Source of the DNA: Tubulanus polymorphus
Taxonomy: Eukaryota > Animalia > Nemertea
NCBI RefSeq assembly: GCF_964204645.1
Contig: NC_134031.1
Location: forward strand, 9,300,001 to 9,364,000
DNA: 64,000 nt
Direction of reading: 5' to 3'
The notes beneath the pieces are model-generated. The model saw nothing but the letters and a program-made list of their open reading frames with translations. It did no database searches and had not been told where the DNA came from. Of the stretch, positions 13,862 to 58,808 are shown one piece after another. The position numbers and the translations under genes were made by a program. The stretch's first letter is position 1. Every line of letters starts with the position of its first letter.

Positions 13862-14410
13862 AGTAATAGGGAATATGGGGGTTCATACCAAAGGTTGAAG
13901 GGGCGAGCTCATAAAAAATAAAGAATAAATTCGTTCGTGCGAGAATTTATTTTTTATGAGCTTCCCTATTACTCTAAATATTCCATATATATGAATAACA
14001 TATAAATGAATAACATATATAAATGAATATTTTATATATGAATAACTTCAAAAATCAATTTTAATAAAAAATTTGATATTTAAATGGAAACTAAACGGGT
14101 GCAAACTATAAATATAACGCATAAGAAATGTTCAAAATGTGAAATAAGTAAGCCATTTACAGAATTTAATAAAGATAAATATTCTAAAGATAGTATTCAA
14201 AGGTATTGTAAAACATGTATTAAGCAATATAAAGCAAATAATTCAGAAAAATATAAAGAACTGAAAAAACAATGGTTAGAAAATCATCCAGGTTATATAA
14301 CAGAATATATGAGAGAATGGAGGTTTAATAATCGAGAACATGTTAAAGCGTATTTTAATAATTATCATAAAGAAAGGTGTCGAACAGATTTTAATTTTTA
14401 AATGAGAGTA
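13862..14410 (+). mobile_element. Truncated Polinton-like end: short terminal hairpin (13862-13973), promoter-like region and 5' part of HNH-type gene (14084-14401)
   Basis: Starts AGTAATAGGG, closes with CCCTATTACT; ORF KKCSKCEISK..EF.K.K.SKD..Q.YCKTC is homologous to 37083-37751 and 56852-57526. Confidence 0.75.
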
Positions 14411-16745: not shown

Positions 16746-17238
16746 GTGGCCTTGAGCGAGACCGATTTTGATTGATTTGGCAGTAAACAAAAAGAAGTGA
16801 AGGTATGCCTCGGCGTTGATAGGTTTACGGTAGACTGAGAAAATCAAATGAGAAAATTTATTGTGAATTAGAACATCTAAAAACGGAATTTGGTCATTTC
16901 GTTCCCATTCAAAAGTGAATTTCAAAGATGGATATTGGGAGTTGATGAAGTCGATAAAAGAGGTAAGATCAAAATTATCAGAAACTAAGCTCAGAATGTC
17001 ATCAACATATCTAATCCAAAAGTTAGGTTTAGAGCCAGCGTACTTAGGGAGAACTTCGGATTCAAAGTGTTCAAGGAAAAGATTAGCCAAAATCGGGGAT
17101 AATGGGTTACCCATAGCGAAACCGAAAATTTGTTCATAGAATTTGTCTTGGAATTGGAAATATAAATCGGTAGTACAGAGTTCCAAAAGTTCAAGTAAAC
17201 ATTCTACAGGAATTGGGAGATCAAGATTGGAGTCCGGG
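16746..17238 (-). pseudogene. Penelope-like element RT, distal part (truncated)
   Basis: FYEQIFGFAMGNPLSPILANLF, WIRYVDDI, LKFTFEWE, IPFLDVLI, VYRKP; joins 49418+ across the Polinton TSD as FLRRKLP-DSNLDLPIPVECLLELLELC. Confidence 0.9.
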
Positions 17239-17650
17239 AGTAATAGGGGTAATGGGCTTTCATACCAAAGGTCGAACGGTCGAGCTCATTAAAAAACAAA
17301 ACATTAAAAGTAATTTAAAACTGTAATATATTTTCATAACCGTGTGTATTTTATATTATAACTAAATATTTATTCTAAGATATCAATAATTTTAATTTTA
17401 AAAGCATATTGTATTAAATCAATTGGTCGCTCCACTTCGCTACCGCTCCGCTCCGCGACCAATTGATTTATTTACAATACACAAATTCATATAATCAAAT
17501 ATATTTTAATAATAATTATTATTCTATTATTCAACTGTAATACACACGGTTATGAAAATATATTATAGTTTTAAATTACTTTTAATGTTTTGTTTTTTAA
17601 TGAGCTCGACCATTCGACCTTTGATATGAAAGCCCATTACCCCTATTACT
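17239..17650. repeat. Left terminal fold-back palindrome of element 1
   Basis: ~112-bp outer arms with 3 mismatches, AT-rich internal bubble, 16-bp inner stem TAAATCAATTGGTCGC/GCGACCAATTGATTTA (17415-17470) with a 24-nt GC-rich loop. Confidence 0.95.
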
Positions 17651-17740
17651 ATTGAAATATTCATGTAAATGAATAACATTTAAATTGACAGATTATTCAA
17701 TATAAAAGTGTAAGCTCTTATAGAATAGATATATAAATAG

Positions 17741-18345
17741 TTATTTTATAAATTTATATTCATATGGAAATTGTAGTCTCAGTAATAATTTTGAACCTTT
17801 ATTATTCTTTAATTTATTCATATATTCATCATGTAATTCAGTAGGTATAATTTGATTTTCTTCTAATGATTGTTGCATAGATTTTTTATCTTTGTTATAA
17901 AATATAACTAGAAATCTTATATTCTCCCTAAAGTCTTTAACAATTGAATTATATTTTTGATTTAAAACCCATGTTGTTATCCCAAAATGTCTCCCAGAGA
18001 AAGCTAGATAACATAACTCACTTTCTCTCACTTTTGAATCATGTAAATTTGCGCAATCATCTACAATGAATAATGTATTTGATCCTTTATAAGTATCAAT
18101 TGCTATTTTTATACAATTATCTAAATTTTCTTTTACTATTTTAGGATCTAATACTTTTTCATCTTAACTATATCTCTATTATATGTTTTATTCATTTCAT
18201 AAGTAGGGCAGAATAATATTATATTATCAAAATGATTCTTATAAATAGTTTCTAACAAATCTAATATGAAATGTGTTTTACCACAATTGGTTACTCCAGT
18301 AACTAACATATTATGCGGTTCAAATATAAATAAATCTTTATTCAT
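17741..18345 (-). pseudogene. A32/FtsK-like packaging ATPase (frameshifted)
   Basis: Walker A GVTNCGKT, Walker B FIVDDC, GRHFGI; two ORF pieces collinear with the intact 59890-60504. Confidence 0.9.
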
Positions 18346-19454
18346 TTATTCTTTTAATTTTACTAGATAAAATCCATTAATTAAATTTATCATCGTATCC
18401 TTTATATTTCACCAAAGAATACTTTTTTCCTTTAAGAGTTTTTGTTTTCAATACTTTTTCTATTTTGTATTCTATTTCATCTGGGTTTGGTACAAGTGAT
18501 AATTCTTGTTCATAGAAATAACCTAATATTTCTTCATCTTTTAAATCTTTTAATTTATAAACAAATGGTTTAGTTAATATTATATTTAATCTTAAATATT
18601 TCTTCTGTAAAATTTGGAGTATAACCTTTATAAAATGTTTTTCTATATTTAGATATTCTTACGTGTTGTCCTATTTTAAATTTAGTTATTCCAAAATCAT
18701 GTGTAACAAATGCTCCGTATAAATTATTCCAAACTATTTCCGAATTATCTTCTTTTCTAGCTTGTATAGGTTTCATATTTATAGAACTATGTTTAGAATT
18801 ATTATAACCTTTCACTAAATCATCTAACACATCGATATATTTATATGATTCATTAGCAGTGAAATATTTCCACATTCTAGTTTTCAATGTTTTATTAAAT
18901 CTTTCTATAATAGATGCTTTTTTATCTGAATGTGTTGGAAAATAATCTACATCGTTATCAGATAATAGTTCTTTAAAATGTTTGTTATAGAATTCCTTAC
19001 CTTCATCAAATTGTATCTTATCTGGAATAGCTTCTTTAAATATAGATTTAAAAGCATTTGTAACTTCTATTCCAGTTTTATTTTTGATTGGAATTGACCA
19101 TGCGTATCTACTGAATATATCTATAACATTTAATATCCAGAAATATCCTTTGTTGTATTCCTCTAAGTTCTTCATGTCAATTAAATCTGCTTGCCATTGT
19201 TGATCGATATATGAAACCATAACTTTTCTTGTTAAATAAGTTTTACCCATTTTCTTGTGGATTTGATATGTTGGTTGATTTTGTAACCATAATCTTAGTT
19301 CACTATATTTTATACCACCGCGTGGGTGCCGTACGGCACCATCACCATTTTCCATATCAGATTTAATTTTATTCCATAATTCTGTAACGTTAGAATATGA
19401 TACTTCACTTTCTGGGTTATAATATAACTCTCTTAAATATTCTTCTTTTTTCAT
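18338..19454 (-). pseudogene. Retroviral-like (rve) integrase with C-terminal chromodomain, frameshifted
   Basis: WQADLIDM, VIDIFSRYAW, FDEGKEF, IERFNKTLK; the tail matches 58809-59897 after a frameshift near 18575. Confidence 0.92.
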
Positions 19455-19460
19455 CTTATT

Positions 19461-19829
19461 TTAATCCATTAATAATAATTTAGATTTAGTTTCAATGACT
19501 TTATGATTTGTCTTATTTTCTGGTATAATAGGTTTATTGTCATTGGAATCATCTTTATCATCGGATTTGAATTTTGATTTATATATTACACCGGATGATA
19601 TAATAATTGTGATTAACCCAATTGTAATATATAAGTAATTATTTCTTCCAGCATTATAAGAATTAGATGGATTGTTATTTGAATCAATATCAGATAAAGT
19701 CTGTGATTCATTTATATCAGTTAATTTCTTTTTCTTAGTTTTTTTTAATTCTGAAGATCTTTTACCTAATTCTCTTGCCCATATAATTTGTTTTTCAGAT
19801 CTAGCCCTTTTCTTAACTCCATCACTCAT
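19461..19829 (-). CDS. Polinton-like basic protein with one predicted TM helix
   Basis: Homolog at 58425-58805; hydrophobic YLYITIGLITIIISSGVIY. Confidence 0.75.
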   Translation of the reverse strand: MSDGVKKRARSEKQIIWARELGKRSSELKKTKKKKLTDINESQTLSDIDSNNNPSNSYNAGRNNYLYITIGLITIIISSGVIYKSKFKSDDKDDSNDNKPIIPENKTNHKVIETKSKLLLMD

Positions 19830-20600
19830 TTATTTTAGTTAATTTTTGTTCTGATTCATTTTCTGTTTCGCTGTTTGGTTGTACAGCGTCATCTGTTTCG
19901 TTCTTACCTGATTTATATTCCATAGGCTTAATATTCGAAAATGTTATGACACCAGTAGAAATAAATGTCATAAACGATCCTAATTGAAAATATAGCTGCA
20001 AAGCAGCGATGACGGGTTTTCTGTAAAGCCATTCAGAATGATGGGAATTGTAGTAAATTGAAATATCGATACATAGAATAAAATGCATTGACAGATTCGA
20101 ACCTAATATGCAACCACTGTGTAAACGTCAAATATGATTCAGCTTTGAAACCGAACATACGTGGACGTACAATCACAAATATTAATATATTTTACCAGGC
20201 ACTTATTTTGGCATTCAAACATCATGATACTGTATTATCACCATCCTTAAAAATGGATCTGTCCTATTAAGAACTCATCTTAAGCACCTGCTGAGCCGAT
20301 AGATTGAGTGAATTCACAGATAAGAACGTATTATGATTTAGAATAGATTAGATTTAAGAAGTTAATGTTTTTATTGAAATATTTGAATAAATACATATAT
20401 TGTAGTGTAGATTCAATCAATAAATTATGAATTGATTTGGTCTGGGTTTCCGGCTGATGTTGATTTTGGCTTTTATGGATTACAAATTCTACTGTGATAA
20501 ACAATTGATACCTGCAACATGTGTGTAAATCAAACCTATTCAACTAGTTGCGTGTGTTTCCTAATAAACGGGAGAGTCACTCTTGATCTGAGTTATTAGA

Positions 20601-21157
20601 ACTAGGGGTCCAGGGACACCATGCCCACTTGGGAAGTGGTTCCAAATTCTCAACAATCTAACAATTCAGTTATCAAAGGTATAAAACATCCCTTTTCAAA
20701 GAATACCCATCACAAATTGCAATGAGAAATGGCAAACTCAGAATTCGGGCCAAAATTGACATTTTTGGGCACTAAAAAAGGTCATAGGGCGGCCATCTTG
20801 AGTCCGTATCCCAATTTTATGCTGCAAAGTTATGCTGATGGGCCCAGGGGCATTCACATATATCCGAAAGATCAAGGTAATTGATCAAAGCATCTTCAAA
20901 ATTTCCCTCAAAAAGTTAAAAAATGTGTAAAAAGTGTTGATTTTGGCGAACAACAATGGCTGCCAGTCGGCCATCTTGATTCTGACAGGGCCAGTTTTTG
21001 AGCTGAAGATTTGTCTAGGGTAGATACATGTGAAACCCAAATATCAAGACATTACATTGAAGCGTCTTCAAAACTTCCTAAAATAACTGATTTCCGTCTA
21101 CGGACGGACGACAAGTGAACGCAATAGCCCGCTGGGACTAAAGTCCCAAGTGGGCTA
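20601..21157 (-). mobile_element. Second HINE/DINE-1-like family, short copy
   Basis: Sub-TIRs CCCACTTGGGA / TCCCAAGTGGG, terminal palindrome GCCCGCTGGGACTAAAGTCCCAAGTGGGC, (GGAC)n microsatellite; longer copy at 53322-54573. Confidence 0.7.
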
Positions 21158-22434
21158 AAAATAATGTTCATTTAGTCATAGAAATTCATTGACTTTTTGG
21201 AGTTTCTGTAATAATATTTGTTCTGCCCTAATTTTTATTACTGTATGAACCAATGATATGCTTTGTAAATATGATGTAATAAAATAAATTTGAATTAAAT
21301 TTGAATATGAGAATCAAGCATAACTTGTGTTTTTTCAACTTGTCTTACTTGTCTTTTGTTAACAGTTCCAGAGTTTCAATAACAATCAAATCCAAATTGG
21401 CTAAAAAGTACATAGGACTAAATGAAATGAACCGTTAGTTACTGCAAACCTATTCCAGTGTTATGTCGATCGTGTTGAATCACTTTCCTTGAGTTGAAAG
21501 AATCAGATCTTCTATGGTACAACATCGGTCATCTTGGTGTTGACTGTCCTTGACCATCTAACTTCATGCGTTTGACATTGGAATTTAGCATCATACCCAT
21601 TTGAACTGCAAAATATTCATACAACATGAAAACCTACAGTACATGTATACAGTAATCAAACTTTCACCGATGTTGGATATTTGAATGAACATTAGGTTTA
21701 TTTCAGTACTCTAAAGCAGGAAATAATAAGCCCAATCAATAGGCCCTATTCCCATTGGAACAATCATATAATGCGTACAGCTGTACCGTACACTTATCAG
21801 TCAAGAATGCAGAAATCGGTATACCAAACCTACGAACAGCAAAATGTACAGGCCTACAATGATTTCTGGTAATACAAGCCGTGACCACATGAACGTTTTG
21901 GTTTGACTATTAATGTCAGCAGGTCAGAGAAGGCCTGGCCAAACTTAATCACATGGCTCAAATCAATTAGCCTTTCTGCGTGTGAATATTTCACTGTATT
22001 GTTTTAAAAATAGGCCTATCGAGTGAATTAGTACATAGACTGAATTAGACTTTAGGCTAGTCCTGACCAAATCCTATCCATATTATAATGGCACCAGTTA
22101 TAGTAACATCACTGTAGGGCCGACGAGAGGGAAAAAGTTGTGTTTGTAGTACATAGGCATGGTAGGCTTGTCGTACTCACTTAATACTTAAAACGCTGTT
22201 GTTACCTGTACGTGACTGTACGGTGATTTCTACAGGTTAGCCATATGTGAGTACGTTGACGCTCAGACTTGCAATATTGGGATTCGAAACCAAACGAAAA
22301 AAAAATCCAGTAGTAGTCCAGTGATTTACCCACTGTGCCACAGAACGTAACTGGTGGTGGATGAAATTTGATTTACAAATAGCCTAGCCTCACCTAGCCC
22401 AAATTCTATTCTTTTACGCATGCGCGTTTGCAGA

Positions 22435-22780
22435 TTATAGGAACTCACGTACAGCGTTTTTAGGGAACTCACGTACGGTTAACCTATGGATATCACCGTA
22501 CAGTCACGTACGCGTTACAATTTCGTACTTAAAATGGTATTGGCTACTAGGAACTCACGTACGGCGTAAGTAGGGAACTCACGTATGGTTTACCTGTGGA
22601 TATCACCTTACAGTCACGTACGCGTTACAGTTTCGTACTTAAAATGGTATTGGCTACTAGGAACTCACGTATGGCATTATAGACTTAGTAGGGACCTCAC
22701 GTACACGGTTAACCTGTGGAGATCACCGTACAGTCATGTGCGGTTAACAACTACGTACTTAAAATGGTATTGGCTTCTAT
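22435..22780. repeat. Three ~110-120-bp tandem repeats
   Basis: GGAACTCACGTA...TCACCGTACAGTCACGT...CGTACTTAAAATGGTATTGGCT repeated; partial inverted copy near 22190-22255. Confidence 0.8.
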
Positions 22781-23245
22781 ATAATAGGCCTATAGACAAA
22801 TAAATACCGGTAGGCTTTTTTATAATCTTAGCTTCCACACTTCACAACCGAACCAACTGACCAACCAGTATATTTAGTCCCAGTACGCACCAACCGGCAC
22901 AGGCCTAACACTGTTTGTCAACTGTGTGTACCGTTGTAGACTATCGATAATCACCTGATACTTTTCTGTCGTTTGTTTTCTCTCTGAGACGAAGACGAAC
23001 GTAATTCTGCAAAAGGTAGAAAGTTTCTAATGTCCGATTACGATTACGATTTATTTACACTCCAACCATTTCCATGGTATATGGAGGAAAACTATTACAC
23101 ATGTATATACAAATATTTACAAAACAACACTAAAGTGATTAAAATTTAGAGAATGAAAACGTAACGAAATATATATATATACATCAACTATTTACAATAC
23201 TATATATACTATTATATACATCAACTATTTACAATACTATATATA

Positions 23246-26200
23246 CTATTGGAGGGATCTATATACATCTAAGCCGGTCTTAATGAATTTAGCTAAGTTG
23301 ACCGTTGGGTTTTTCAGAATATCAAGGGTATTAAAGGTATTCAAATTCAAAAAGTTTTTGCGTTGTTCGTTAAGTAAGGTACAGTCAAACAGAAAATGGG
23401 ATTCGTCACCTAAAGTATTACAAGTGGGGCATATTCTATCGGCTCTGTCTAAATGAAGGTTTGAAAATTTGTTCACAGGTAAAATATAGGACCCGACCCT
23501 AAATTCAAATAAACTAGTTCCTAAGTCCTCACCAAGTTCTATTATATACTTCTCTAACCTAATATCATTTTTATATTGCCTAAAGTTAGTGTATATCGGA
23601 TTAGTATTTATGGCAGATACAGTTTCTTGAAGGTGCTGGTCACGGAGTATCTGTTTTATTCGTTTTAAAAAAGATTTACTGTTAGTCATGAATTGCTGCG
23701 TCCAAATGCAGGACAAACCACAGTCATCAAACGTTTTCTTTATATATGATAACCAAGGGCTCTTAAATTTATCCCTTAAAAATAAATTGAAAGATATTTT
23801 ATAGAGTATTGAATTAAGTTTGGTTTGCTTTCCAGATACTGTTTTCACCCAAAAGTTAATCATCCTGCGTCTAACATCTATATTCAAAGGGTAACGTCCT
23901 ACCTCTGATAAAACTTGTAAGTTGCGAGAATATTTCGTCACTTTCATTAAGATTTTACAGAAGAAGCGATGAATATTTTCTAATAAATCAAGATTTTCAT
24001 ATCCCCAGATCTCACACCCATACATGGCTATTGGAGCAACACACGTATCAAATAATTTAAACATAACATCTATGGGCAATTTCAAACGTCTGCCTTTTTG
24101 AACGATCGAAAACATAGCTCTGATAGCTTTATCGTAAAGATACTTTTTTGCCTTAGCAAAGTTACCATTCCAATTGAATTTTACTCCGAGATAAACATAA
24201 TCTTCAACTACCTCTAACTCTTGATCACCAATCATAAATTTCGAAATCGTTTTTATCCGGGATTTACTTCGCGCAAATACTAGTACTTTAGTTTTCTCTG
24301 GGTTAACAGTGAGACCATAAGCCGCGCAATATTCAAATAAGGTATCTAAGTGTAGCTGAAGAGATTTCTCATCCTCAGCAAGAATAACTGTATCATCTGC
24401 GTATAGTATTATGAATAAATTCAGTAAAGTATCAATATCCTGATCACGATTCAAATTTAGTTTTTCTATAAATGACAAAGTTGGTTTTCCACGATCAATG
24501 AAAAATTCTTCAATGTCGTTTAAGAATAACGAAAAGAGGATAGGTGAGAGATTTTCGCCTTGTCTTAAGCCTCTATCAGCTGCAAAGTATTGTGACGTGC
24601 AACCATTTAATTCAACACATGATTTTATGGAGTTATACATATTTTTGACCACATTGAAAAAGTTTCCATTAACATTGTTAGCAATTAATTTTCGCCATAA
24701 CTTTACCCTACAAATCGAGTCGAAAGCTTTCTTAAAATCAACAAAGGCGCAAAAAAGTCTTCTTCCCTGACAAAGATACAGCTCTACGATTGTTTTAAGC
24801 GTGTAAATATGATCAATGGTGGAATATTTCGATCTAAAGCCAGCCTGGGCTTCACTTATAATGTGATTCGTATCTAGAAATGTTGACAATCTTTGATTTA
24901 GGATACTTGTAAATAATTTACCAAGACAGCTAACTAAGGTAATACCTCTATAATTATCAGGATTAGAGGGATCGCCATTCTTTTTGAAAATGGGTTTGAT
25001 GACTCCTATAGACCACATCTCTGGAACATATCCTGTTTTATGAACTAAATTGAATAATTTTTGTAATATATCAACTAAAAACGGATACTGACTAACTCCC
25101 AGCAGCTCATTCGTGATTCCATCAATGCCTGGGGCCTTATTGTTTTTGAGTAAAGAGATAGCCTTAATTACCTCATCACTGGTTATATCACTGTTCAAAA
25201 TATAATTGTCATAGACAGGATGGTCACCCACGTCTGGGGGCTCATCACCGTCATCGGTTTCATTGTTAACATTATTCAAATCATTTAATCTCATAAAATG
25301 TTCAAGAAAAATATCAATATCTATATTAGCCTCATTATTTTTTGTTCCGCTCGCAGAGTTTAGCATCGACCAATACTTTTTTGGGTTATTAATTTCGCAT
25401 TCTCTCAATTCCTTAATAAATTCATCCTTTTGTTTCTTCTTATTTTCTCGGATGACCTTTTTATAGTTTTTAGACGAGTTCTTAAGGGATTCAAAATTGG
25501 AAAGGGTAGGGCAACCCCTATATCTTTTTTTCATATAATTATATTTCTTCTGTGCATCTCTACAGTCCCTGCCAAACCATCTGTTGCGGACCGGTTTTTT
25601 GCAGTTATTACTTTTCCTACTTTTTCTATGGTACATCAAATTACACTCATCAGCACTTGATAATAAAGAAGATACAAATCTATCGGTAAGTCCATTAATG
25701 TCATCTGGCGATTGATTTCCTAGATCTTGCAACCCGTCCAATAGTAACTTATCTAAATCATTATCTCGTAATCGTGATTCTACATTCAGGAAAAATTGAT
25801 TTGATCTAGTACTGACCCACCTAATTGAAGTTTTAAAGTTCGCGTGTTCATTACCCCTTTCATTATCGCTAGCAATGGTGTCCCTAGAATTCGTATACAC
25901 GCACAGATTAATAGGATTATGTCTTTCAGATAATAATGGGTCAAAAGGCATTATTTCAAAGTCCTCAACATAACCAAACAGTTCTAAATCACACACAAAA
26001 TAATCGATGACACTAGTGTTCCTAAAAGTATAATTACCTGTCTGATCATTGCCACATCTGCCATTGAGGATAATTAGTGAATGGTTCTTACACAAATCTA
26101 TTAGTTGATAGCCTGTATTATTCTTTCTTTTGTCCTGATTATTTCTAGTAGTGGGAACGCCTAAATTAATCAATGAGTCAACAATAGGGTCTAAGTTATC

Positions 26201-27049
26201 ATCTTGAATTATCTGATTATCAGGTTCCAAAAAGTCTGGCATACAAGCGGTGTGAGCATTAAAGTCACCAGAAATTAACACATTGAAATCATACTCAACT
26301 TTCAATTGCAATAACTCTATTTCAATTTCTCTGATAGCTATTTCTGAATAATAACGACTATTTTCTGGAGGAATATAAATTACACCTAAAAGTACATGTT
26401 TGTCGCGATTAAATAAATCTTTATCTAATAAATACCAAGATACAAACTGAGAGTCAGTCGAAATTGGTTTTATTTTATTTTTCATGAACTTCCTATATAT
26501 GATACCGACGCCACCTGATCCTTTTTTTGAAAACTTTTTCCTATTTTTAAAGTGCGCCATATGGGAGGCGGGCAAGCTACAACCTAAATTACCGTCTAAA
26601 TCATCTAAGTGAGTTTCAGTTAGACATGTGATGTCATTATTGCTAATAAATTCACAGAATTCTGGGATATCGAGTTTAGCTATAAGGCCACATACATTCA
26701 GCGTAGAAAACTTTAATGATGATTTGATACAAGGAATTTCACTTATGTTTGCTGCGTTTGCTGTACTAGTTACATTTTGCTTATTTAAATCAGAAGTGTT
26801 AATATTTCGCTTATTTACATCAGAAATGAAATTGTTAGGAGTTACATCAGGTACATGATTGTTACTATTTACATCAGGGTATGTATCTACCGTATGAGAA
26901 TTTACATGCGAGCCAACGATATCTCTATTTACATTTGGATAACTGTCACATAAATTTACACTATTTACAAATTCTATAACATAACAACAACTTCGAGATA
27001 CAAGGACAGTCCGGTCTACGAATTGTACGCAAAGTCCCTCCGCTGGTTC
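23246..27049 (-). CDS. LINE ORF2 (AP endonuclease, RT, C-terminal CCHC finger); frame is open up to the ORF1 stop
   Basis: LNVCGL, CLTETH, GDFNAHT, LNGR, NYRGITL, FVDFKKAFD, GLRQGENLSP, LYADD, CPTC..GDESHFLFDC. I translated 26576-27049 by hand and found no stop. Confidence 0.9.
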   Translation of the reverse strand, partial: EPAEGLCVQFVDRTVLVSRSCCYVIEFVNSVNLCDSYPNVNRDIVGSHVNSHTVDTYPDVNSNNHVPDVTPNNFISDVNKRNINTSDLNKQNVTSTANAANISEIPCIKSSLKFSTLNVCGLIAKLDIPEFCEFISNNDITCLTETHLDDLDGNLGCSLPASHMAHFKNRKKFSKKGSGGVGIIYRKFMKNKIKPISTDSQFVSWYLLDKDLFNRDKHVLLGVIYIPPENSRYYSEIAIREIEIELLQLKVEYDFNVLISGDFNAHTACMPDFLEPDNQIIQDDNLDPIVDSLINLGVPTTRNNQDKRKNNTGYQLIDLCKNHSLIILNGRCGNDQTGNYTFRNTSVIDYFVCDLELFGYVEDFEIMPFDPLLSERHNPINLCVYTNSRDTIASDNERGNEHANFKTSIRWVSTRSNQFFLNVESRLRDNDLDKLLLDGLQDLGNQSPDDINGLTDRFVSSLLSSADECNLMYHRKSRKSNNCKKPVRNRWFGRDCRDAQKKYNYMKKRYRGCPTLSNFESLKNSSKNYKKVIRENKKKQKDEFIKELRECEINNPKKYWSMLNSASGTKNNEANIDIDIFLEHFMRLNDLNNVNNETDDGDEPPDVGDHPVYDNYILNSDITSDEVIKAISLLKNNKAPGIDGITNELLGVSQYPFLVDILQKLFNLVHKTGYVPEMWSIGVIKPIFKKNGDPSNPDNYRGITLVSCLGKLFTSILNQRLSTFLDTNHIISEAQAGFRSKYSTIDHIYTLKTIVELYLCQGRRLFCAFVDFKKAFDSICRVKLWRKLIANNVNGNFFNVVKNMYNSIKSCVELNGCTSQYFAADRGLRQGENLSPILFSLFLNDIEEFFIDRGKPTLSFIEKLNLNRDQDIDTLLNLFIILYADDTVILAEDEKSLQLHLDTLFEYCAAYGLTVNPEKTKVLVFARSKSRIKTISKFMIGDQELEVVEDYVYLGVKFNWNGNFAKAKKYLYDKAIRAMFSIVQKGRRLKLPIDVMFKLFDTCVAPIAMYGCEIWGYENLDLLENIHRFFCKILMKVTKYSRNLQVLSEVGRYPLNIDVRRRMINFWVKTVSGKQTKLNSILYKISFNLFLRDKFKSPWLSYIKKTFDDCGLSCIWTQQFMTNSKSFLKRIKQILRDQHLQETVSAINTNPIYTNFRQYKNDIRLEKYIIELGEDLGTSLFEFRVGSYILPVNKFSNLHLDRADRICPTCNTLGDESHFLFDCTLLNEQRKNFLNLNTFNTLDILKNPTVNLAKFIKTGLDVYRSLQ

Positions 27050-27835
27050 CTAGTGGCTGTCCATCGGTACGCGGTCACGGTTTTCGCGGATAACGAGTTT
27101 GTCCCGTACAAAGAAAGCTTGTTTTCCGTTCGCTTTCGCGGCTCTCAGCTCGGGTAGCTTTTCACGTCGTCTCGCCGCCCATTCCTCAGGCACCTGTTCA
27201 TTCAGTCCTAAAGACGAGCCCGCGAGATTTTTCGCAACTGAACGTACCAGTTCACGATCTTTGAAGAACTCGAATTTTGCAACAATTGGGCGCGGTTTTT
27301 TCTGTTCGTTTTTCCTTCGTCCAAGGCGATGTGTTCGCGCGAATTTGAATGAGTTCACGGTCGTCTTCGGTAACTTAAGGTCTTTCTCGCAAAAGCCTTT
27401 AATTAAGTCCTCGGTATTCTCATTTTCGGATTCCTCGACGCCGTAAAAGATCAAATTATCGCGCATGCTACGCCATTGCTGATCTAGGAGTAGTTCATGG
27501 TCCGATTTGATAATTGCGTCCTGATCAGCGACGACTTTCTCTAAATCGCGAACTTTGCTTCTAAGTTGTTCGTTTTCACTCTTTAGTTGTAATACGTCCT
27601 GGTGGCAAAATTCAAGCGATTGTTTAACTTCGGTCATGTCCCTCTGCAAGTCGTCTAGAAGCTCTAATTTCGAAAGCTGGGAAAGAATCGCATCAAGTTT
27701 TGACGATATTCCATTGTCTGCTTCCACACGTGATGCCGTTTCCTCAGTCGATTTATGATTCTGGCGATTCGGACGATTTGATGCTGCAGTCTTCTGCTTC
27801 TTGTTAGGGGCTGAAACACTTTGTCTTCCCGCCAT
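27050..27835 (-). CDS. LINE ORF1 (coiled coil plus RRM-type nucleic-acid-binding domain)
   Basis: SMRDNLIFYGVEE, RTHRLG, PRPIVAKF, ARRREKLP motifs typical of L1-like ORF1 folds. Confidence 0.88.
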   Translation of the reverse strand: MAGRQSVSAPNKKQKTAASNRPNRQNHKSTEETASRVEADNGISSKLDAILSQLSKLELLDDLQRDMTEVKQSLEFCHQDVLQLKSENEQLRSKVRDLEKVVADQDAIIKSDHELLLDQQWRSMRDNLIFYGVEESENENTEDLIKGFCEKDLKLPKTTVNSFKFARTHRLGRRKNEQKKPRPIVAKFEFFKDRELVRSVAKNLAGSSLGLNEQVPEEWAARRREKLPELRAAKANGKQAFFVRDKLVIRENRDRVPMDSH

Positions 27836-28037
27836 TTTCTCCAGGTCTCACCGAATATCACACAGATTTTGTGGTTGAAAAAGAAAAACAAATCGGTTAA
27901 GTTTCAATTTATAGAAACGGGATTAACTGGACGCAAAGAATTAAACTAATCTAGGCCCTACGCACGTTAGTTCGTTTGTCATCAACCGGTGCGATTAGTC
28001 TTTGTCGACTATGCAATGTTAATTCGTTTGATATAAG

Positions 28038-30647
28038 CTAGTTTTTAGTGTCCATTGTCCATTTGTCCTTAGTAGATAATGATGGTCTTTTCTTCCACTG
28101 AACAGGATTATTAATATGAAAAGCATCATTTTTCCAAAATTGATATATGTGAAATTTTGACAAGTCATTATTGAAAAGTACTAATCTTAATTTCCAATTA
28201 CAGGTTATATGTTGATGATAAATGCGTTTGGAAATTGTTGCTGAACGTAAAAAAGCCGGACGACTTACTTTATGGTTCAGTTTATAGTTATAACAAGTTG
28301 CGCATAACTTATTACCCATTTCATCAGTTGACCATTTAGGACTAGAAACGCTTGCACAATGAAAACATGTATTACTCGATTCAAGAGACTTCCTACATGC
28401 AGGACATGACTTAGTATTTGCTGATAAATCTAAAGTATTTAGTAAAGCACCACAGTCTGATCTACATTTTTGCGAAGTAGATGAACATCTTATCAAAATC
28501 TCTACTGCCTTACCATGAGTCACTGGGAGATCGTTCAAGGTTTCTTTAAATTTGTACTTTTCATCAAATCTGTGTGTTGTTCCCCATCCCTTTTTCTCGG
28601 TTACTGAGACCTTCATGGCAGACATACTTTCAGGATACAAAACCTGTACATTTTTGTTTAAAATACTAACCTTTTTCGTAAAATCAAAAGAAAACTTATC
28701 AAAAAAAACTTTTGTATCGATTCCTGTTTGTACTTCCCCAATATGTATCCACTCTTCAGAAGTGCAGCTTTCAACCCATTTAATCAATTCATCACTTCGA
28801 AGAAATGCTTCCACTCTATCCATACTCTCTCTATCACTTCTTCCAGAAGAATTACAAGGAAATGTTTTATAAAAATGTCGAGTAGAACTTGTCAATTGCA
28901 TATCAACTTGAAGTACATGTTTTCCATTTCTAATTTTATGCCAAATTCGGGGTTCACCCTTCAAAATGCTTGATACATCAACTGGAGATTGGTTTAGCAA
29001 AATTAGATTTTGTGGAAGCTTTTTTTGAGGACTGTGGGTTTTAGTGACTGCTTTTTTTTCAGGAGAGTGGGTTTCAGTGACTGAGGTCTTTTTACACTTT
29101 TTAGCTGCGGGAAAAAAATCATCCTCATCACTACATATTATAACTGGTGAATTTTCACGCATAAAACCTTTCTTTAAAGGAGTTAAAAATTGAAAATTTT
29201 GTGATGTTTGAGAAGGATCATATAAATTTGAAATATCAATGGTTCCTGTTATCAACCAGTCTATCAAAATAAATCTGAGAAAATGTGAATTTTTACTGAT
29301 ATTTCTTAGGTATGAAAGTCTAGAATCGATGGCATTCGGACGTTTTGCAGCTAGTGTATAAAATTCATTGCTCTCAAATGCTGCCAAGCATCCACCAATA
29401 ATGGATGCAGGTCCGCAGACAGCACCACAACTTTGAATAGGATAAAGGGGAGAACATTGTGAGGAGCATTTATGTCTACCATCATGACCAAAATTCACCG
29501 AGTGACAGAGTATAATATTCGGCCGATGCCTTATATGTAGATGATCAGATAGTTGATGTATATGTGATTTGAACTCAGGTGGACATGGCCAACCTAAAGT
29601 GTCCATATAAAAAACACAATTCTTAGAAATATCAAAAACAGCACATGAATAATGATTTGCCATTTGATGATGAGAGCGATGTAAAAATGAATGTCCCCCA
29701 CCAAACCCAACATGCAAGAAAAATATGAGCTTTTCACATGAACTGAAAAAATCCCCATTAAATAGACGTTGCATTTTAATTGCAAAACGCTCAGAATCAA
29801 AATACATAGGGAACATTTCAGCATAAACAGAAGGCTTTGACATATTTATCAAATGGGAAAAAGCATTCATGAGTGAACCATCCAACCAGGTGTTCAATGC
29901 GAGGGTTTTAATTTCATCAACTTGTAAACTATATCCATTTACATTTATATGTTTACTGGGGATCTCATTCTCTAAATATGAAAGAAATATTTCTCTGTTA
30001 TTTTTCATGGCTGCATTTTGAGTAATAGGGAAAACAACAAGACTAGCTCTTAACCATTCAACAATTCGAATGAATACTTCTTTATTTTTTTTGGCAGTTA
30101 CTAACAAAAAGCGCAATTTTTTAAGTTCATCAATGCTAAAACAGCCATAATCAAGGTTTACATGGTTAGAATTTTTGCCGTGAAAACCCAAAATCAACTC
30201 ATCCAGTTGTTTTTGATGAGGAGTGAATTGGGCATTCTCAGCACTGGTACAAGTACCTGTGCACATGCGACACTTAATTTGCAAAGATGCCTTTGTTATA
30301 GGAATATGCATCTTTGCATAATAGCCAAGGGGTTGCTCATCTAATTGAACATTTTCATCAGATTCACCCTCTCCTTCACTAATAACAATTACATCACCCC
30401 CACCACGGATTCTCCTAGGCACATTTCCTACCTCTACATGTTCAAACTGTTTCTCCAACTCTTTCGTATTACCAGTATCTGACACACACCCACTTTTGCA
30501 AGCACACCGACAGCTCCCACTCTCGCACGCACACCGACAGCTCCCACTCTCGCACGCACACCGACAGCTCCCACTCTCGCAAGCACACCGACAGCTCCCA
30601 TTCTCGCACGCACGCCGACAGCTCCCACTCTCACCAGTTACTCTCAT
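28038..30647 (-). CDS. Ulp1/C48-like cysteine protease plus GATA-type zinc finger, probably a large exon
   Basis: TLALNTWLDGSLMNAF, NHYSCAVFD, YMDTLG, PIQSCGAVCG (H-D-Q-C order of C48 proteases); CFHC-x17-CATCYNYKLNHKVSRP resembles a GATA finger; N-terminal (ESGSCRCAC)x5. Confidence 0.75.
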   Translation of the reverse strand: MRVTGESGSCRRACENGSCRCACESGSCRCACESGSCRCACESGSCRCACKSGCVSDTGNTKELEKQFEHVEVGNVPRRIRGGGDVIVISEGEGESDENVQLDEQPLGYYAKMHIPITKASLQIKCRMCTGTCTSAENAQFTPHQKQLDELILGFHGKNSNHVNLDYGCFSIDELKKLRFLLVTAKKNKEVFIRIVEWLRASLVVFPITQNAAMKNNREIFLSYLENEIPSKHINVNGYSLQVDEIKTLALNTWLDGSLMNAFSHLINMSKPSVYAEMFPMYFDSERFAIKMQRLFNGDFFSSCEKLIFFLHVGFGGGHSFLHRSHHQMANHYSCAVFDISKNCVFYMDTLGWPCPPEFKSHIHQLSDHLHIRHRPNIILCHSVNFGHDGRHKCSSQCSPLYPIQSCGAVCGPASIIGGCLAAFESNEFYTLAAKRPNAIDSRLSYLRNISKNSHFLRFILIDWLITGTIDISNLYDPSQTSQNFQFLTPLKKGFMRENSPVIICSDEDDFFPAAKKCKKTSVTETHSPEKKAVTKTHSPQKKLPQNLILLNQSPVDVSSILKGEPRIWHKIRNGKHVLQVDMQLTSSTRHFYKTFPCNSSGRSDRESMDRVEAFLRSDELIKWVESCTSEEWIHIGEVQTGIDTKVFFDKFSFDFTKKVSILNKNVQVLYPESMSAMKVSVTEKKGWGTTHRFDEKYKFKETLNDLPVTHGKAVEILIRCSSTSQKCRSDCGALLNTLDLSANTKSCPACRKSLESSNTCFHCASVSSPKWSTDEMGNKLCATCYNYKLNHKVSRPAFLRSATISKRIYHQHITCNWKLRLVLFNNDLSKFHIYQFWKNDAFHINNPVQWKKRPSLSTKDKWTMDTKN

Positions 30648-32390
30648 ATCTGTCTTACCTTGGCCAAGTTTGGGACACCTGAAAAATTGATATTATTACT
30701 TAAGCATCTAAATGAAAAATTAGAATTCCAGCTTCCAATGATCCAATGGAAAAAAATCATCCTCATCACTACATATTATAACTGGTGAATTTTCACGCAT
30801 AAAACCTTTCTTTAAAGGAGTTAAAAATTGAAAATTTTGTGATGTTTGAGAAGGATCATATAAATTTGAAATATCAATGGTTCCTGTTATCAACCAGTCT
30901 ATCAAAATAAATCTGAGAAAATGTGAATTTTTACTGATATTTCTTAGGTATGAAAGTCTAGAATCGATGGCATTCGGACGTTTTGCAGCTAGTGTATAAA
31001 ATTCATTGCTCTCAAATGCTGCCAAGCATCCACCAATAATGGATGCAGGTCCGCAGACAGCACCACAACTTTGAATAGGATAAAGGGGAGAACATTGTGA
31101 GGAGCATTTATGTCTACCATCATGACCAAAATTCACCGAGTGACAGAGTATAATATTCGGCCGATGCCTTATATGTAGATGATCAGATAGTTGATGTATA
31201 TGTTATTTGAACTCAGGTGGACATGGCCAACCTAAAGTGTCCATATAAAAAACACAATTCTTAGAAATATCAAAAACAGCACATGAATAATGATTTGCCA
31301 TTTGATGATGAGAGCGATGTAAAAATGAATGTCCCCCACCAAACCCAACATGCAAGAAAAATATGAGCTTTTCACATGAACTGAAAAAATCCCCATTAAA
31401 TAGACGTTGCATTTTAATTGCAAAACGCTCAGAATCAAAATACATAGGGAACATTTCAGCATAAACAGAAGGCTTTGACATATTTATCAAATGGGAAAAA
31501 GCATTCATGAGTGAACCATCCAACCAGGTGTTCAATGCGAGGGTTTTAATTTCATCAACTTGTAAACTATATCCATTTACATTTATATGTTTACTGGGGA
31601 TCTCATTCTCTAAATATGAAAGAAATATTTCTCTGTTATTTTTCATGGCTGCATTTTGAGTAATAGGGAAAACAACAAGACTAGCTCTTAACCATTCAAC
31701 AATTCGAATGAATACTTCTTTATTTTTTTTGGCAGTTACTAACAAAAAGCGCAATTTTTTAAGTTCATCAATGCTAAAACAGCCATAATCAAGGTTTACA
31801 TGGTTAGAATTTTTGCCGTGAAAACCCAAAATCAACTCATCCAGTTGTTTTTGATGAGGAGTGAATTGGGCATTCTCAGCACTGGTACAAGTACCTGTGC
31901 ACATGCGACACTCAATTTGCAAAGATGCCTTTGTTATAGGAATATGCATCTTTGCATAATAGCCAAGGGGTTGCTCATCTAATTGAACATTTTCATCAGA
32001 TTCACCCTCTCCTTCACTAATAACAATTACATCACCCCCACCACGGATTCTCCTAGGCACATTTCCTACCTCTACATGTTCAAACTGTTTCTCCAACTCT
32101 TTCGTATTACCAGTATCTGACACACACCCACTTTTGCAAGCACACCGACAGCTCCCACTCTCGCACGCACACCGACAGCTCCCACTCTCGCACGCACACC
32201 GACAGCTCCCACTCTCGCAAGCACACCGACAGCTCCCATTCTCGCACGCACGCCGACAGCTCCCACTCTCACCAGTTACTCTCATATCTGTCTTACCTTG
32301 GCCAAGTTTGGGACACCTGAAAAATTGATATTATTACTTAAGCATCTAAATGAAAAATTAGAATTCCAGCTTCCAATGATCCAATGGAAA
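29110..32390. repeat. 1638-bp near-identical tandem duplication
   Basis: ORF starts 30647 and 32285 differ by 1638; junction near 30748 has GGAAAAA microhomology; the right copy carries a stop at 31203. Confidence 0.92.
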
Positions 32391-33619
32391 AATATCAACA
32401 ATGGTTAAGGTTCAATACTTACGTATCAAGATCATGAAAACTAACAACATGGTTAAGGAGATCTTCCCAATTCATTAAATCGGATCCACAAAAGCACACA
32501 TGGTCTGAAGGATCTACATAGTCAGAGACCTTTAACAAATAACATAATACAGCATAAAATGTGTACCGGGTATCTACAAGGCATAGTTCATAACCAGCTA
32601 AGAGATAGATTTTTAATCAAACGTACTTGTTTCACAGCAAATCTTTTCTTTTTCTGACATCTTTTAGAGTATTTACAAGGAATCTGTTGTACTTTAATCT
32701 GAAAAATTGATTTAGGCATCAATGAAATGCTGCTGCTGCTGCTTTAATCATATCTAAAACAATAATATGCACTTACATCAGAATGATATAATGAATGAAT
32801 TTTTTCGCTGCATAGAAGAATATCAACTCCAGCAACATTAATCCTAGACATACCCTAAAAACAAATGAAAAATTGTGTATCAGTGCTAAAACTGGAAGTA
32901 TGCAACAGCCTCTTCATGTGCAGCACAGGCTTGAATAAACATCAATGTGAATACACATGATAACATATAAGTACAATCAAAAATATTTTTGGTAAAATTG
33001 ATGACATTATTATGAGAATGATTAAATATACCTCGCTGTAATCACTCTTATCATTCTTCGTACATGTATAACTAGTATTATAAAAGATATTCTGTTGTCT
33101 TGAGCTTGTCTTGATCTGAAAACAGAATTGAATTGTAGAAGTTTTAAAATGCCTTGCCCTTTTGATTAACAAGTTAACAGTGCCACATTTAAAATTGGAA
33201 AATAAGGGCTTCTCTAATAACTAACCTTTATTCCCATTGATACACATTTATCTTTTACTAATCGCTCTCTGATCTTTGTTATCACCTATATAGTGAACAT
33301 AATGAATTGATCAAGAAACAATCAAATATAATCCATTTTTCTTTACTTCGAATCGAATCGATAGTCCAATTTACCTTTTGTCTGTGAATTTTCCGATTTT
33401 CTAACATTTTTGATACTTCGTACGGAAAATATACCGGACCCCTATATGATTCAAACATATTTTTCATTAAAATCTGATTCTAAAAATTAAGAGATTCAAT
33501 AATTTTCCGAGATGGACAGTGACTTTAACATAGTCATAGGGAACGTCTCCATATGCACAGTAAAACAAGCTTAATCATTATTTCGTAATTGATGTATATA
33601 TACATCTAAAAATGATCCT

Positions 33620-34492
33620 ACATCCTGATTTCACTGGTTAATAATGCAGATTAAAATGGGCTCTACTGTATTATCATTCTCATACCTGGTTTCCTGACTG
33701 CTTAAAAGATCGATTATTCTCCCTTCGATAACTATGTTCCCTTCTCTACTGGGATGCAAAAAATCCGTACTATAAAATAAAAATTGGTTAGGCATGGACA
33801 ATGTATTACCAATAGGTCAGGCTAAAGAGAAATATTTTACTTACGGGGAAAGTAACTCCTCAGAAAACTCAAGATCATAGAATCTAACCCCCAGTTTCAA
33901 ACATTCTCTGTGTAGCATTTCGTTATAGTACTTGACTTTTATGTTAGCATCATAACTGAAAAATAATTTCAGGGAAATTAGGTGAATCACCTTCAGATCA
34001 AAAATGAAATTATAAATATCATTTCCGTCATTCTCATGATAAAACAAACTCTTCAAACGATCAATGTAATCATTGAAATACTTACTTGTCAAGTCTAGTA
34101 AAAAGAGCTGGTACTATAATCGGGCAATAACATTTACTAATTACAAGACGAATCAAATAAACATGCTGTTCCAGTACTTTTTCTAGCGGTTGGTCCTCAG
34201 TCATGTTATTTGTTCCCACATGCAAAATAACCCGATTCGCATGGATAATATCAACTCTCCGTAATTCTGTAATGAAATAAACACAATCATATCTATACTA
34301 GCAAGAGACTATCTTTTCTAAAAATTTCATTCAGAGTGTTTGTGATTGTATTTTGCAACGACAAGTCGACAACTATAAATTACCTTTTATCAATGTTTGG
34401 ATTCTGCCTCCAGGGCACACTATCTTTTCCCAGTCAAAAATGTCATTTTGTCCCACATATTTGAGGATGCTGTCTGCCAAGAGACAGATACG
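33620..34492 (-). CDS. Spliced SGNH/GDSL hydrolase domain (exons 34384-34492, 34086-34266, 33845-33955, and from 33769 downward)
   Basis: GT-AG introns with compatible phases give CLLADSILKY..CPGGRI..RVILHVGTNN..TRLD..YNEML..TDFLHPSREG (SGNH blocks I, II, III, V). Not present in the ORF track. Confidence 0.78.
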
Positions 34493-35029
34493 CTAAAAAG
34501 ATACCGTACCTTGAATTAAACATAGTTTTTACTCATATCAGTATCAATGTTTTGTGACATGTATTAACAAACCTGCTTGTGTCTAAAATGCCTAACATGT
34601 AGGTCTAGGCATATGAAAAAATGTGCATAAGTATAAATGTGCTAGATTGTATAATAAAACTAAAACACCAAGTATTTACATTTTCTATCAACATATGAAA
34701 AACACAATAAAAAGCATATCACCACCATGCAAATAAAACTAAAACACCCAATTTTTACATTTTCCACCAACAATAACAAATGTTATATATGATAAATAAA
34801 TCATATGTGATGAATAAATAAAACAATCAATAATGTTACGAAGCAAGGATATCCGTACTGAATTAAATGGATACTGCAATGTAACATTACAGATTACAGA
34901 TAGATAGACTATAAAGATAGCTAGACTTAGAAAAAATAATACTTATCCCTAAAAACCACATGTTGAACTGTAAGAAACAACATATAATTAAAAAAATATT
35001 CATTTTTCAGGTACGAGTTAGGCCTAAAA

Positions 35030-35350
35030 GGAGCGGTGTGGGGCAGGGGCACTCAACTCTGGGAAGCCAGGTTGTGGGTTCGAATCCTGTATAGGCTACA
35101 TTAACGTAGTGTCCCTGGCCTGGGCAAGGCACTTATCCTCAGACATTGCCTCTCTCCACCAGGAGTAAGTAGGTAGGCGGCCTACAGGGTCTGAAAGATG
35201 ACTACTTTAGTAGCTGGTCAGATGTTACTTCTCCCACCCCAGGGCCAGGCCAGGGAGAGATGATTGATACGTGGCTGGCATTAGTTATAGCAATTTAATG
35301 GAATTAAGCGCCTTTGAACATTTTATCACAGTGAAACGTATCGCTATCAC
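35030..35350 (+). mobile_element. tRNA-derived SINE
   Basis: B-box GGTTCGAATCC, conserved GTGTCC..TGGGCAAGGCACTT central motif, LINE-like TAAGCGCCTTTGA tail. Confidence 0.7.
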
Positions 35351-37082
35351 TTATTAGTTAGTATCAATCTTTATTTTAGTCTTCTTAACTCAAGTATTAA
35401 GTAAGAGAACCGTTTGCAATTATAATAATGATAATTGTAGTATTGTTGGTTAATAATCACGCTAATAATACAAGTCAGAGTGCGTGTTAAGCAATAAGCA
35501 TTTACCTCTTTTCTACTAATCACATCTGATCTGTTGGATCCAGCAACAAGTTGAACTCTTTCCGAAAACATTTCTTTTTCGAACGCAAATCACGACTTCT
35601 GAAAACTGAATAGCGCGCTGTGAACTTCAACTTCAAAACAAATTTGTTGAACAGCAGTGTATCGAAAAACTGTACGTACAGTGTACTGCGAACTGAACGC
35701 GGCGTCTTCTCACTTAGAAAATTATCGACTTGACAGATTAGTTCGATTTTCGACCGCAGCGGCGCTATACGACATTGGACAAAAGAAACTTTCTACCTTT
35801 TGCCGTAATTCTAGTAGCCTTCAGCGACTCAACGACCTTGATTTAAACTTGATCAATTCAAAGTCTATTTATTGACGCTTTTGGTTACATGAACTGATCA
35901 GCAATATACTTAAATAAAATAACCGGAATAACAAGAAATCAAAAATATTAAAGAGGTAACAAACAAATGCCCGTAAACCTGTCAGACACGCGAACGCCGG
36001 ACTCGTAAACTCTTGGACTCGGACCAGCTGAGCAATAAATTCATAAAATTGACTTTGAAATTGATTGTGGAGAAGAGAGGGAATTATTCGATAGCGTTCC
36101 TCGAAAAGAAGAGAGAAATATCGGTAAGAAAACACAACATGGCTACTAATTGAATGGAGCCAAATTTCCGATGTTTACGGCTCGACAGTGCCTTTAAAAC
36201 GTGGATTTATCAAAATTCCCATGCAGTATCTGGAGATTGAAGTGAGCTGAAGGACATCATACGGATTGTATCGGCGACAGCGGTAAGGTAAGGAAGCCTT
36301 TACACTTTTAACAAAAACTATGTGGAAAAGGGAAAAAAAAATAATAATAATCACGCGAATTTCAATAGGGTTTTCTGTGAAGAAACAGAAAACCCTAATG
36401 AAGCATATCCAACCCATTTTTGTAATTCAGTCATAACTAAATAGTCATTTTTCAAATCACTATATAGTTTATTTTCATCATCAATTGGTATTAACTGGTT
36501 ACATAACTTAGAATAACATTTGACAATACCATCTGAAATAGAATCATTTATTCGGGCTAATCTTGCTTCTTCATAAATCTTAAAATATTTTATTACTTTA
36601 TCTGGTTTCATAGCATCTAATTCTTGAAAAGTTATTATTTTTCCCAAGAAATCCTTAGTTTTTCCACCGGCAATCAATAGTTCTAGATGATGCTTACAAT
36701 ATAAATAGTATTCATAATCTATATTACAATAACTTGAGCACAATTAGTTACAACTGTATCTTTATTATCACTTATACCCAAATCATCTAATGTCTTTTCA
36801 ATATCAATACTATTCTTATTAGATTTCTTTGACATTTATATTAGAGAAAAAAAGCCAAACAAATATTATAAGTATTATAAAATGATACCAGTATCTCTTT
36901 AGATTAATCCTAGCTTAGTTAAAGGTAAAGAATTTTAGTATTAGTTATTGTTTTTTTAGTATTTTTTATTTGTGGTATAAAGTATTCTTTTTTGAAAAGA
37001 AAATATTAAAAATGTAATAGAATTCACTAGCTAGTGGAAGTTATTGTTTTTTTAATATTTTTTATTTAAAATCTTTTATTCT

Positions 37083-37751: not shown

Positions 37752-38256
37752 TTATTATACATATTTTTTTACTAAATTGATTTTAGAAGTTATTCTTTTA
37801 TATGTTATTCATGAATATATATGAATTATTTCAATAAAACTTTACTAACACTTTTAATGTTTAAAAATCTAACTCATACAAATATAAATATTGAAATATG
37901 TTTAAAATATACCTATGTATTAGATACCCTATTAGATACCATATTAGATACCCTAATACCTGATACCCTATTAGATACCTTAATTACTTAAAACCCCCTT
38001 TTTAAAAACAAATATTATTTATACAATTTTCAACCAATTTATTTTTATTTTTTCAACTAATATATGAATAAGTTTGAAAATCATAAAGGTTATGTATTAT
38101 TACTGAGGTTTCAATATAAATTTACAAAAGAAATATAATTTAAGGTATTTTCAAATAATACGTATTAGATATGTATTAGATATGTATTAAATACCTATTA
38201 GATACCTTAATACCCCTTTTTTATTTACTATTATTTTATACAATTTTCAACCTTTA

Positions 38257-39066: not shown

Positions 39067-39098
39067 TTATATAATAAATTTTTATTAAAGTTAAAATT

Positions 39099-40346: not shown

Positions 40347-40386
40347 TTATTTAACAAAAAAATTAATTATTTATTTTGAATCATGT

Positions 40387-42105: not shown

Positions 42106-42117
42106 TTATATAAAAAA

Positions 42118-43466: not shown

Positions 43467-43482
43467 TTATATAATTAAAAAA

Positions 43483-43917: not shown

Positions 43918-43932
43918 TTATTTAGAAAAAAA

Positions 43933-44357: not shown

Positions 44358-44381
44358 TTATTTAGTAAAATAATTATGCAT

Positions 44382-44960: not shown

Positions 44961-44976
44961 TTATATAGGTGAAAAA

Positions 44977-58805: not shown

Positions 58806-58808
58806 AAT

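Follow-up and report, generated by a model that had tools for sequence, protein, structure and literature searches.

What an integrated DNA element gains from ends that are each paired with an inverted copy of their own tip is the question raised by a 64,000-nucleotide stretch of the Tubulanus polymorphus genome (contig NC_134031.1, positions 9,300,001 to 9,364,000; referred to here as the window). The first-pass annotation had described every terminus in the window as a hairpin of about 410 bp and had listed three of them, with shared end motifs, an AT-rich bubble, and a 16-bp stem carrying a 24-nt loop. The coordinates and parts of these three units were reproduced, but a further terminus, X3, folds back within only 112 nt, so that the length does not hold for every end. 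The units are as follows:

17239..17650, plus strand: left fold-back unit of element E1 (412 nt; arms at ~17239-17349 and ~17540-17650)
17415..17470, plus strand: apex of the left E1 unit (16-bp stem and 24-nt GC-rich loop)
49007..49417, minus strand: right fold-back unit of E1 (411 nt; apex at 49186-49241)
54913..55326, plus strand: fold-back unit of E2 (414 nt; apex at 55084-55139; polymerase-end type)
13862..13973, plus strand: X3 terminus, representing a third subfamily (short fold-back, 112 nt)

The three long units start with AGTAATAGGGG and end with CCCCTATTACT, and each consists of arms of ~111 bp, AT-rich bubbles of 59 to 77 nt a side, a 16-bp stem, and a 24-nt loop; the spacer between the arms of an E1-type unit is 190 nt. 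The arm length agrees with the ~112 bp proposed earlier, though the arms are imperfect, with 3 differences between outer and inner arm in the left E1 unit, 7 differences and 1 gap in the right E1 unit, and 10 differences and 1 gap in E2. All three have a terminal stem of 26 bp that is free of mismatches. For positions 17239-17650, the predicted fold has an energy of -136.3 kcal/mol (z -28), and none of 100 shuffled sequences was as good; z ranged from -21 to -31 on both strands of all three long units (25 shuffles each). In the predicted geometry, the 3' end lies flush on the inner copy and the template runs on into the body of the element, in agreement with the flush folding that had been proposed. 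The 56-nt apex of the left E1 unit is identical to that of E2 (56/56) and nearly so to that of the right E1 unit (55/56), and in the three long units the loop faces the same way with respect to the element end. X3 is built from a 12-bp terminal stem, a one-sided bulge of ~31 nt, a second stem, and a small GC-rich loop (z -6 to -7, computed on 13862-13972), and its tip type and subterminal motif are those of the other ends. The tips of all four units read AGTAAT...ATTACT, element sequence continues after each of them, and the inner end of the unit abuts, at each end, a conserved subterminal motif that lies ahead of the first gene. Searches of Rfam and of plasmid sequences gave no match.

The boundaries of E1 place the left unit at the very edge of an inserted element:

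17233..17238: left copy of the E1 target-site duplication (TSD), TCCGGG
17239..49417: element E1, between the two TCCGGG copies
49418..49423: right copy of the E1 TSD, TCCGGG
17239..17712, plus strand: full left TIR of E1 (~474 bp; 96.9% identity to 48945-49417; contains the fold-back unit)
19990..36396: nested insertions in E1 (LINE-type RT open reading frame [ORF] at 23246-27049 and others)

The TIR extends 62 bp beyond the unit, and the fold-back is thus nested inside the TIR. The insertion of E1 split an RT frame (16218-17238 and 49418-50628) whose halves are open and in register across the duplication. These halves match positions 1-93 and 108-176 of Pfam RVT_1, and the retrotransposon that was hit is, judging from its motifs, presumably Penelope-like. 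Within the insertions, a 1638-bp tandem duplication of 99.8% identity (29110-32397) is either very recent or an assembly duplicate.

The genes recognized in E1, in the second copy, and behind X3 are listed below:

17741..18163, minus strand: A32-type packaging ATPase, E1 fragment (Pox_A32, E 1.5e-6)
18377..19454, minus strand: rve integrase with chromodomain, E1, split over two frames (rve, E 1e-9; Chromo, E 0.0015)
39099..40346, minus strand: major capsid protein, E1 (1155/1248 nt identical to the E2 copy)
45500..48800, minus strand: protein-primed family B polymerase (pPolB), E1, broken by stops and frame changes
55409..55497, plus strand: 5' start of the polymerase/zinc-finger ORF, cut by unrelated sequence (96% identity to 48712-48853)
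58809..59897, plus strand: rve integrase with chromodomain, open frame (E 1.6e-8)
59890..60504, plus strand: A32-type packaging ATPase, open frame (E 5.2e-12)
62372..63619, minus strand: capsid protein, second copy (model pLDDT 87.5; PBCV-1 capsid, E 4.7e-17)
14084..14401, plus strand: ORF after X3, kin of the 222/224-aa ORFs; the X3 element is cut off shortly after it

E1 thus combines a TIR of ~474 bp, a 6-bp TSD, and 5'-AG...CT-3' tips with an rve integrase, a pPolB with TP and vOTU domains, a packaging ATPase, and a double jelly-roll capsid protein (415 aa), all of which are Maverick/Polinton characters; its TIR lies within the 100-1500 bp that the available text of PMC10748475 gives for this group. 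For these reasons, Maverick/Polinton is a better name than the Polinton-like virus of the first-pass annotation, and the ends of E1 and E2 are assigned to a multi-copy Maverick/Polinton family. Since the polymerase start of the unit at 54913 is cut at 55497, it is uncertain whether this unit and the genes at 56852-64000 form one copy. No Pfam match to an adenain/Ulp1 protease, a typical but non-core feature of the group, was obtained in the scanned ORFs, and a motif scan was also empty; a loss of the protease is not proven by this, given that E1 is decayed and E2 incomplete. Among the scanned ORFs of the window, no Pfam family of HUH/Rep (NS1) nickases was detected. The 222/224-aa ORFs are weakly HNH-like (HNH_4, E 0.074, in the 224-aa copy only), and the minor capsid candidates (44977-45339; 565-1329 in the related element L001) had no Pfam match. 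The module formed by the 222-aa ORF, the integrase, and the ATPase is inverted in E1 (17725-37782) with respect to the second copy (56821-60520); the left breakpoint of this inversion coincides with the inner boundary of the TIR, and a remnant resembling the subterminal sequence is found at 37743-37921. Gene order is variable among the relatives L001 to L007 as well.

The E1 polymerase, which matches DNA_pol_B_2 weakly (E 1e-4), comprises a zinc finger, a TP-like domain (D1), a vOTU domain, an exonuclease with an endonuclease VII insert, and the palm. In the alignment of E1 with nine homologs, an invariant Ser in a Gly-Ser-Gly loop of the TP-like domain and the Cys and His of the vOTU were kept in all 10 rows. 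The natural homolog P0122, which is 46% identical to the E1 polymerase over the N-terminal region, was modeled at modest quality (pLDDT 68.8, 9 sequences) with four strands and two helices, the Ser being placed between helix 2 and strand 4. This model matches PolBs of the adintovirus/MELD type, and its layout agrees with the TP-vOTU arrangement of PolB, including a predicted linking Ser, described in the available text of 10.1101/2024.03.18.585575. Its matches to Y-family polymerases and a viral OTU were weak (E 0.01-0.07), with no fold match in PDB under E 0.001, and an atlas look-up of the TP-like region returned unnamed clusters only. The alignment shows that the TP-like domain and the vOTU are kept in the family, and the aligned residues indicate the same for the broken E1 copy; the persistence of this TP-like domain, including the Ser predicted to form the linkage, favors protein priming over pure self-priming. 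The insert in the exonuclease region (46551-47354) matches Endonuclease_7 (PF02945) above the Pfam cut-off (E 6e-6), and precomputed Pfam data place an endonuclease VII domain in 4 of the 9 polymerase homologs.

Both arms of the fold-back evolve in concert. Between E1 and E2, 10 arm columns (13-15, 17-19, 77-78, 105, and 109) changed in both arms together, among them the two paired changes that had been quoted before. The column-wise chance of such co-change is ~1e-6, a figure that overstates the covariation, because the columns cluster in three tracts (13-19, 77-78, and 105/109), are not independent within a tract, and may reflect one event per tract. In X3, the inner copy tracks its own tip where that tip departs from E1. 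E1 and E2 diverge by 12-16% in the arms, by 7.5% in the capsid gene, and at 0/56 positions in the apex, an invariance with a P of 0.013 at the capsid-gene rate. Two arm positions are unpaired in all three long units, namely, position 27, a C/T mismatch that had been reported as CATACC against CATATC and as kept, and position 39. On the 3'-ended strand, the transitions common to at least two ends (27, 35, and 39) form G.T wobbles, and this strand has the better fold of the two in each of the three long units, a small number; the private mismatches at 41, 85, and 90 run opposite to this bias. The inner arm is the more decayed one, with the 10 mismatches and 1 gap of E2 and the ~31 nt lost in X3. 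A short cluster of inner-arm differences distinguishes the left unit of E1 from the right one; at these sites, the left unit agrees with its own outer arm, and the cluster looks like a conversion tract. Such patchy differences argue that the arms are homogenized episodically rather than recopied in every cycle. While homogenization of the arms is shown by these comparisons at the sequence level, gene conversion of a neutral duplicate would yield the same pattern, so that covariation establishes homogenization only; selection for arm pairing is what we infer in addition.

The abundance and flanks of the unit were assessed in one raw whole-genome shotgun (WGS) run with the same species label, ~12% of which was read; 18,121 reads were placed at 88% likeness, and three contig sets inspected beside this run added little. 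Depth was 1100-2000x over the unit and averaged 559x in the ATPase/integrase region, and the ratio of terminus to interior was 2.3 (four unit bins over 22 interior bins), near the two ends expected per element. Among the best 24 of 676 rows, the outer tip had 1604 plus 385 loose ends with mixed flanks, and the inner end accounted for no more than 337 of the 2326 arm-flank reads (14.5%); these 337 may stem from solo units, from a small class of flipped ends, or from ties, and 629 reads fitted two places. A free MITE or a 1:1 flip predicts about equal inner and outer counts, and both are therefore unlikely. The first-pass annotation had taken the single loop orientation as an argument against terminal resolution of the AAV type. 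The shared orientation was confirmed in the three long units, yet it is weak evidence by itself, as chance would produce it in 1 case in 4 under 50:50 flipping; it is the read counts, in which the inner end has no more than 337 of 2326 among the best 24 of 676 rows, that argue against a 50:50 flip/flop. No strand-change joint was present among the best 15 of 63 joints, in data where reads are short and integrated copies dominate. An assembly artefact was rejected, since reads cover the unit from one end to the other at 1100-2000x and share a single tip position across many flanks. Further loose ends at 17258 (379 reads) and 17295 (666 reads), also among the best 24 of 676 rows, belong to another abundant subfamily that has only arm positions ~20-57 in common with E1.

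Our leading reading, held tentatively and at somewhat less than an even chance, is that the maintained fold-back acts as a local duplex origin or end-repair template for TP-primed replication. The tip pairs with its inner copy over ~111 bp, the two co-vary from one subfamily to another, and the TIR that contains them belongs to an element inserted by an integrase. After excision or displacement, a single strand would bring its 3' end back to the inner copy, 300 nt away, and this local folding would replace the search for the other end ~15-20 kb away. The TP-polymerase could start at the resulting duplex end and copy first one arm, then the spacer, and then the other arm without changing their order, in which case no flip/flop would arise and asymmetries between the arms would persist. 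Short tracts would now and then be transferred between the arms, either when a trimmed end is refilled or when mismatches are repaired in the fold, and the invariant apex may be a protein-binding signal. A local duplex origin accounts for the flush geometry, the kept asymmetry, the missing flip/flop, the conversion anchored at the tip, and the retention of the TP domain.

A 3'-OH that lies flush and has template ahead of it is, however, ready to act as a primer, and this makes hairpin self-priming a real rival and the main one, although we consider it unlikely. The folded 3' end would be extended into the second strand in a parvovirus-like manner and resolved asymmetrically with one orientation kept, possibly by the endonuclease VII-like insert, the HNH-like ORF, or the integrase, while protein priming would serve the other step. 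At the left-end bubble of MVM, asymmetry is provided by a mismatch, and hairpin priming with asymmetric resolution is possible without flip/flop; the absence of flip/flop is thus compatible with hairpin priming. The Endonuclease_7 domain inside the polymerase suits such a scheme, but the insert occurs in distant homologs as well. The mismatches kept in the arms could mark asymmetry, as in the vaccinia hairpins of PMC8956199 (available text), and the same model was proposed for Halocafeteria elements in the accessible part of 10.64898/2026.07.28.741278. Self-priming is at odds with the conservation of the TP-like domain, its linking Ser, and the vOTU residues, with the lack of HUH/Rep among the Pfam-scanned ORFs of the window, and with the lack of a 50:50 flip and of a strand-change joint among the best 15 of 63. 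Protein priming and self-priming could also act at different steps. In a hybrid cycle of this kind, which strikes us as rather improbable, the excised single strand would prime itself from its 111-bp fold-back, a nuclease within the polymerase would resolve the hairpin asymmetrically with the help of the kept mismatches, and TP priming would afterwards amplify the linear form; if true, parvovirus-like and adenovirus-like end replication would be joined in one animal Maverick element.

A role of the unit as double-stranded DNA, with paired sites or a cruciform used in excision, integrase loading, packaging, or early transcription and arm homogenization as a by-product of cruciform repair, would fit the position of the inner end, which adjoins the conserved subterminal motif ahead of the first gene, the invariant apex, and the junction-resolving type of domain in the polymerase. 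Long spacers make cruciform extrusion unfavorable, and the 190-nt spacer speaks against extrusion from these arms; moreover, the slight wobble bias of the 3' strand suits single-strand folding better, and X3 retains the pairing but not the spacing. We rate this role as quite unlikely. A similarly low probability is given to a neutral accident, in which a template switch duplicated the tip, TIR copying spread the duplicate, and sporadic conversion followed without function. The accessible part of 10.64898/2026.07.28.741278 offers this alternative, and both the patchy, conversion-like inner-arm differences between the E1 ends and the decayed inner arms of E2 and X3 agree with it. It is less easily reconciled with two architectures (112 and ~412 nt) that are both flush at the tip, or with the perfect 26-bp terminal stem of the three long units and their invariant apex. 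Long palindromes are, in addition, normally lost fast, and their persistence here is a further point against an accident. The least probable reading by far is that the 412-bp unit is a MITE in its own right, with E1 as a composite between two copies of it. Each unit has transposon-like inverted ends, and some solo units may exist among the 337 mixed-flank reads at the inner end (best 24 of 676 rows), but none of the four units has a TSD of its own, whereas E1 as a whole has one; 62 bp of the TIR lie beyond the unit, element sequence follows in 4/4 cases, and the depth ratio of 2.3 is near the expected 2. A free MITE as the main class was rejected on these grounds, and the solo units with their own TSD that the first-pass annotation had proposed to look for did not occur among the four, the unit being mainly an element end.

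In adenovirus, replication is protein primed and a panhandle pairs the two genome ends, and in Streptomyces, TP-capped telomeres contain several short palindromes and rely on a separate telomere protein. Both resemble the scheme proposed for E1 in that protein priming is combined with a single strand that folds to rebuild or patch an end; to our knowledge, a 111-bp inner copy of the tip is absent from adenovirus and Streptomyces ends. E1-type ends most likely work like an adenovirus-type duplex origin that is formed locally. Parvoviruses and AAV have terminal hairpins and an HUH Rep, and the flip and flop isomers of AAV occur at ~1:1. In contrast (compare the available text of PMC4061559), E1 is an integrated double-stranded DNA element with its own polymerase and integrase, with no HUH Rep among the scanned ORFs and with read counts that speak against 50:50 flip/flop; predicted flush folding of the 3' end, short GC-rich apex repeats, and kept mismatches are common to both. 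According to the accessible text of PMC8956199, poxvirus telomeres resemble the E1 ends as AT-rich imperfect hairpins, and their mismatches matter, but they are covalently closed, exist as flip and flop forms, and involve neither integrase nor protein priming.

In the standard model of Polinton excision and copying, as given in the available part of the July 2026 preprint 10.64898/2026.07.28.741278, a single strand has its two TIRs paired. The same part reports TIR palindromes beside the TSDs of virophage subtypes and PLV subtype 4 in Halocafeteria seosinensis (52 nt in the example, gap limit 10, preferentially in elements without pPolB) and proposes hairpin priming after excision, with accident as the alternative. 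The idea of terminal palindromes and hairpin priming is thus already in print for protist virophages and PLVs. As in E1, these palindromes lie inside the TIR next to the TSD; as far as that text goes, E1 differs in its ~111-bp arms around a 190-nt spacer, which is beyond a gap-10 search, in its covariation, and in its pPolB of the TP-vOTU type. Animal Maverick/Polinton elements share with E1 the TIR range, the 6-bp TSD, the AGT...ACT tips, the rve integrase, the pPolB, the packaging ATPase, and the double jelly-roll capsid protein, and nuclease inserts in pPolB are known from nematode and oomycete elements (available parts of PMC8097293, PMC10748475, and PMC8502044). The AGTAAT tip of E1 is one base off the (AGT)2 in the accessible text of PMC8097293, and adenain/Ulp1 was not found in E1/E2. 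An inner inverted copy of the tip is not described for animal Mavericks in the available parts of PMC8097293, PMC10748475, PMC8502044, and PMC4061559, nor are such ends in those of PMC6431247, PMC11296320, and 10.64898/2026.10.13.758929. Searches of the literature by title and abstract returned no pPolB Maverick whose fold-back ends are long and spaced, although early descriptions, Repbase, or supplements may contain them. New here are the long spaced arms, their concerted evolution, and the TP-type polymerase, by which terminal palindromes are extended from protist elements that mostly lack pPolB to an element with a TP-type polymerase. Because of the long spacer, palindrome screens with short gaps would miss such ends. 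Exit from the chromosome and copying of Polintons are still a model, and a maintained self-pairing end is sequence evidence for a single-stranded stage; the 412-nt unit is also a defined substrate for which protein priming, self-priming, and end repair predict different outcomes.

A scan with the terminus pattern gave no match in viral contigs or in metagenome contigs, and the single match in prokaryote genomes was attributed to chance, as it had no fold-back likeness. The integrase search of viral contigs produced 14 candidates, none of which was confirmed, and the terminus was present in 0 of 7 metagenome loci with capsid relatives (51-76%). Since no terminus was recovered from relatives in other species, conservation rests on one species label. 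A host-gene search confirmed none of 77 candidates; an animal host is suggested by a C1orf109-like gene in the window, by the LINE-type insertions, and by a relative of the capsid protein in a mollusc. The related element L001 carries a deoxynucleoside kinase gene (10340-10981; Pfam dNK, E 1.7e-31). AT-rich intergenic inverted repeats were observed at 60564-61127, after the ATPase gene of the second copy, and at 36990-37071 and 57594-57675, as well as in the relatives L001 (9082-9359), L002 (3743-3825), and L004 (3183-3255). By analogy with the hairpin-ended transcripts of mimiviruses, these repeats may be candidate terminators. The window also harbors an unrelated 356-bp element with 133-bp inverted arms (15605-15960), probably a non-autonomous foldback transposon, which is adjoined by 31-bp tandem arrays (16100-16850 and 51700-54860).
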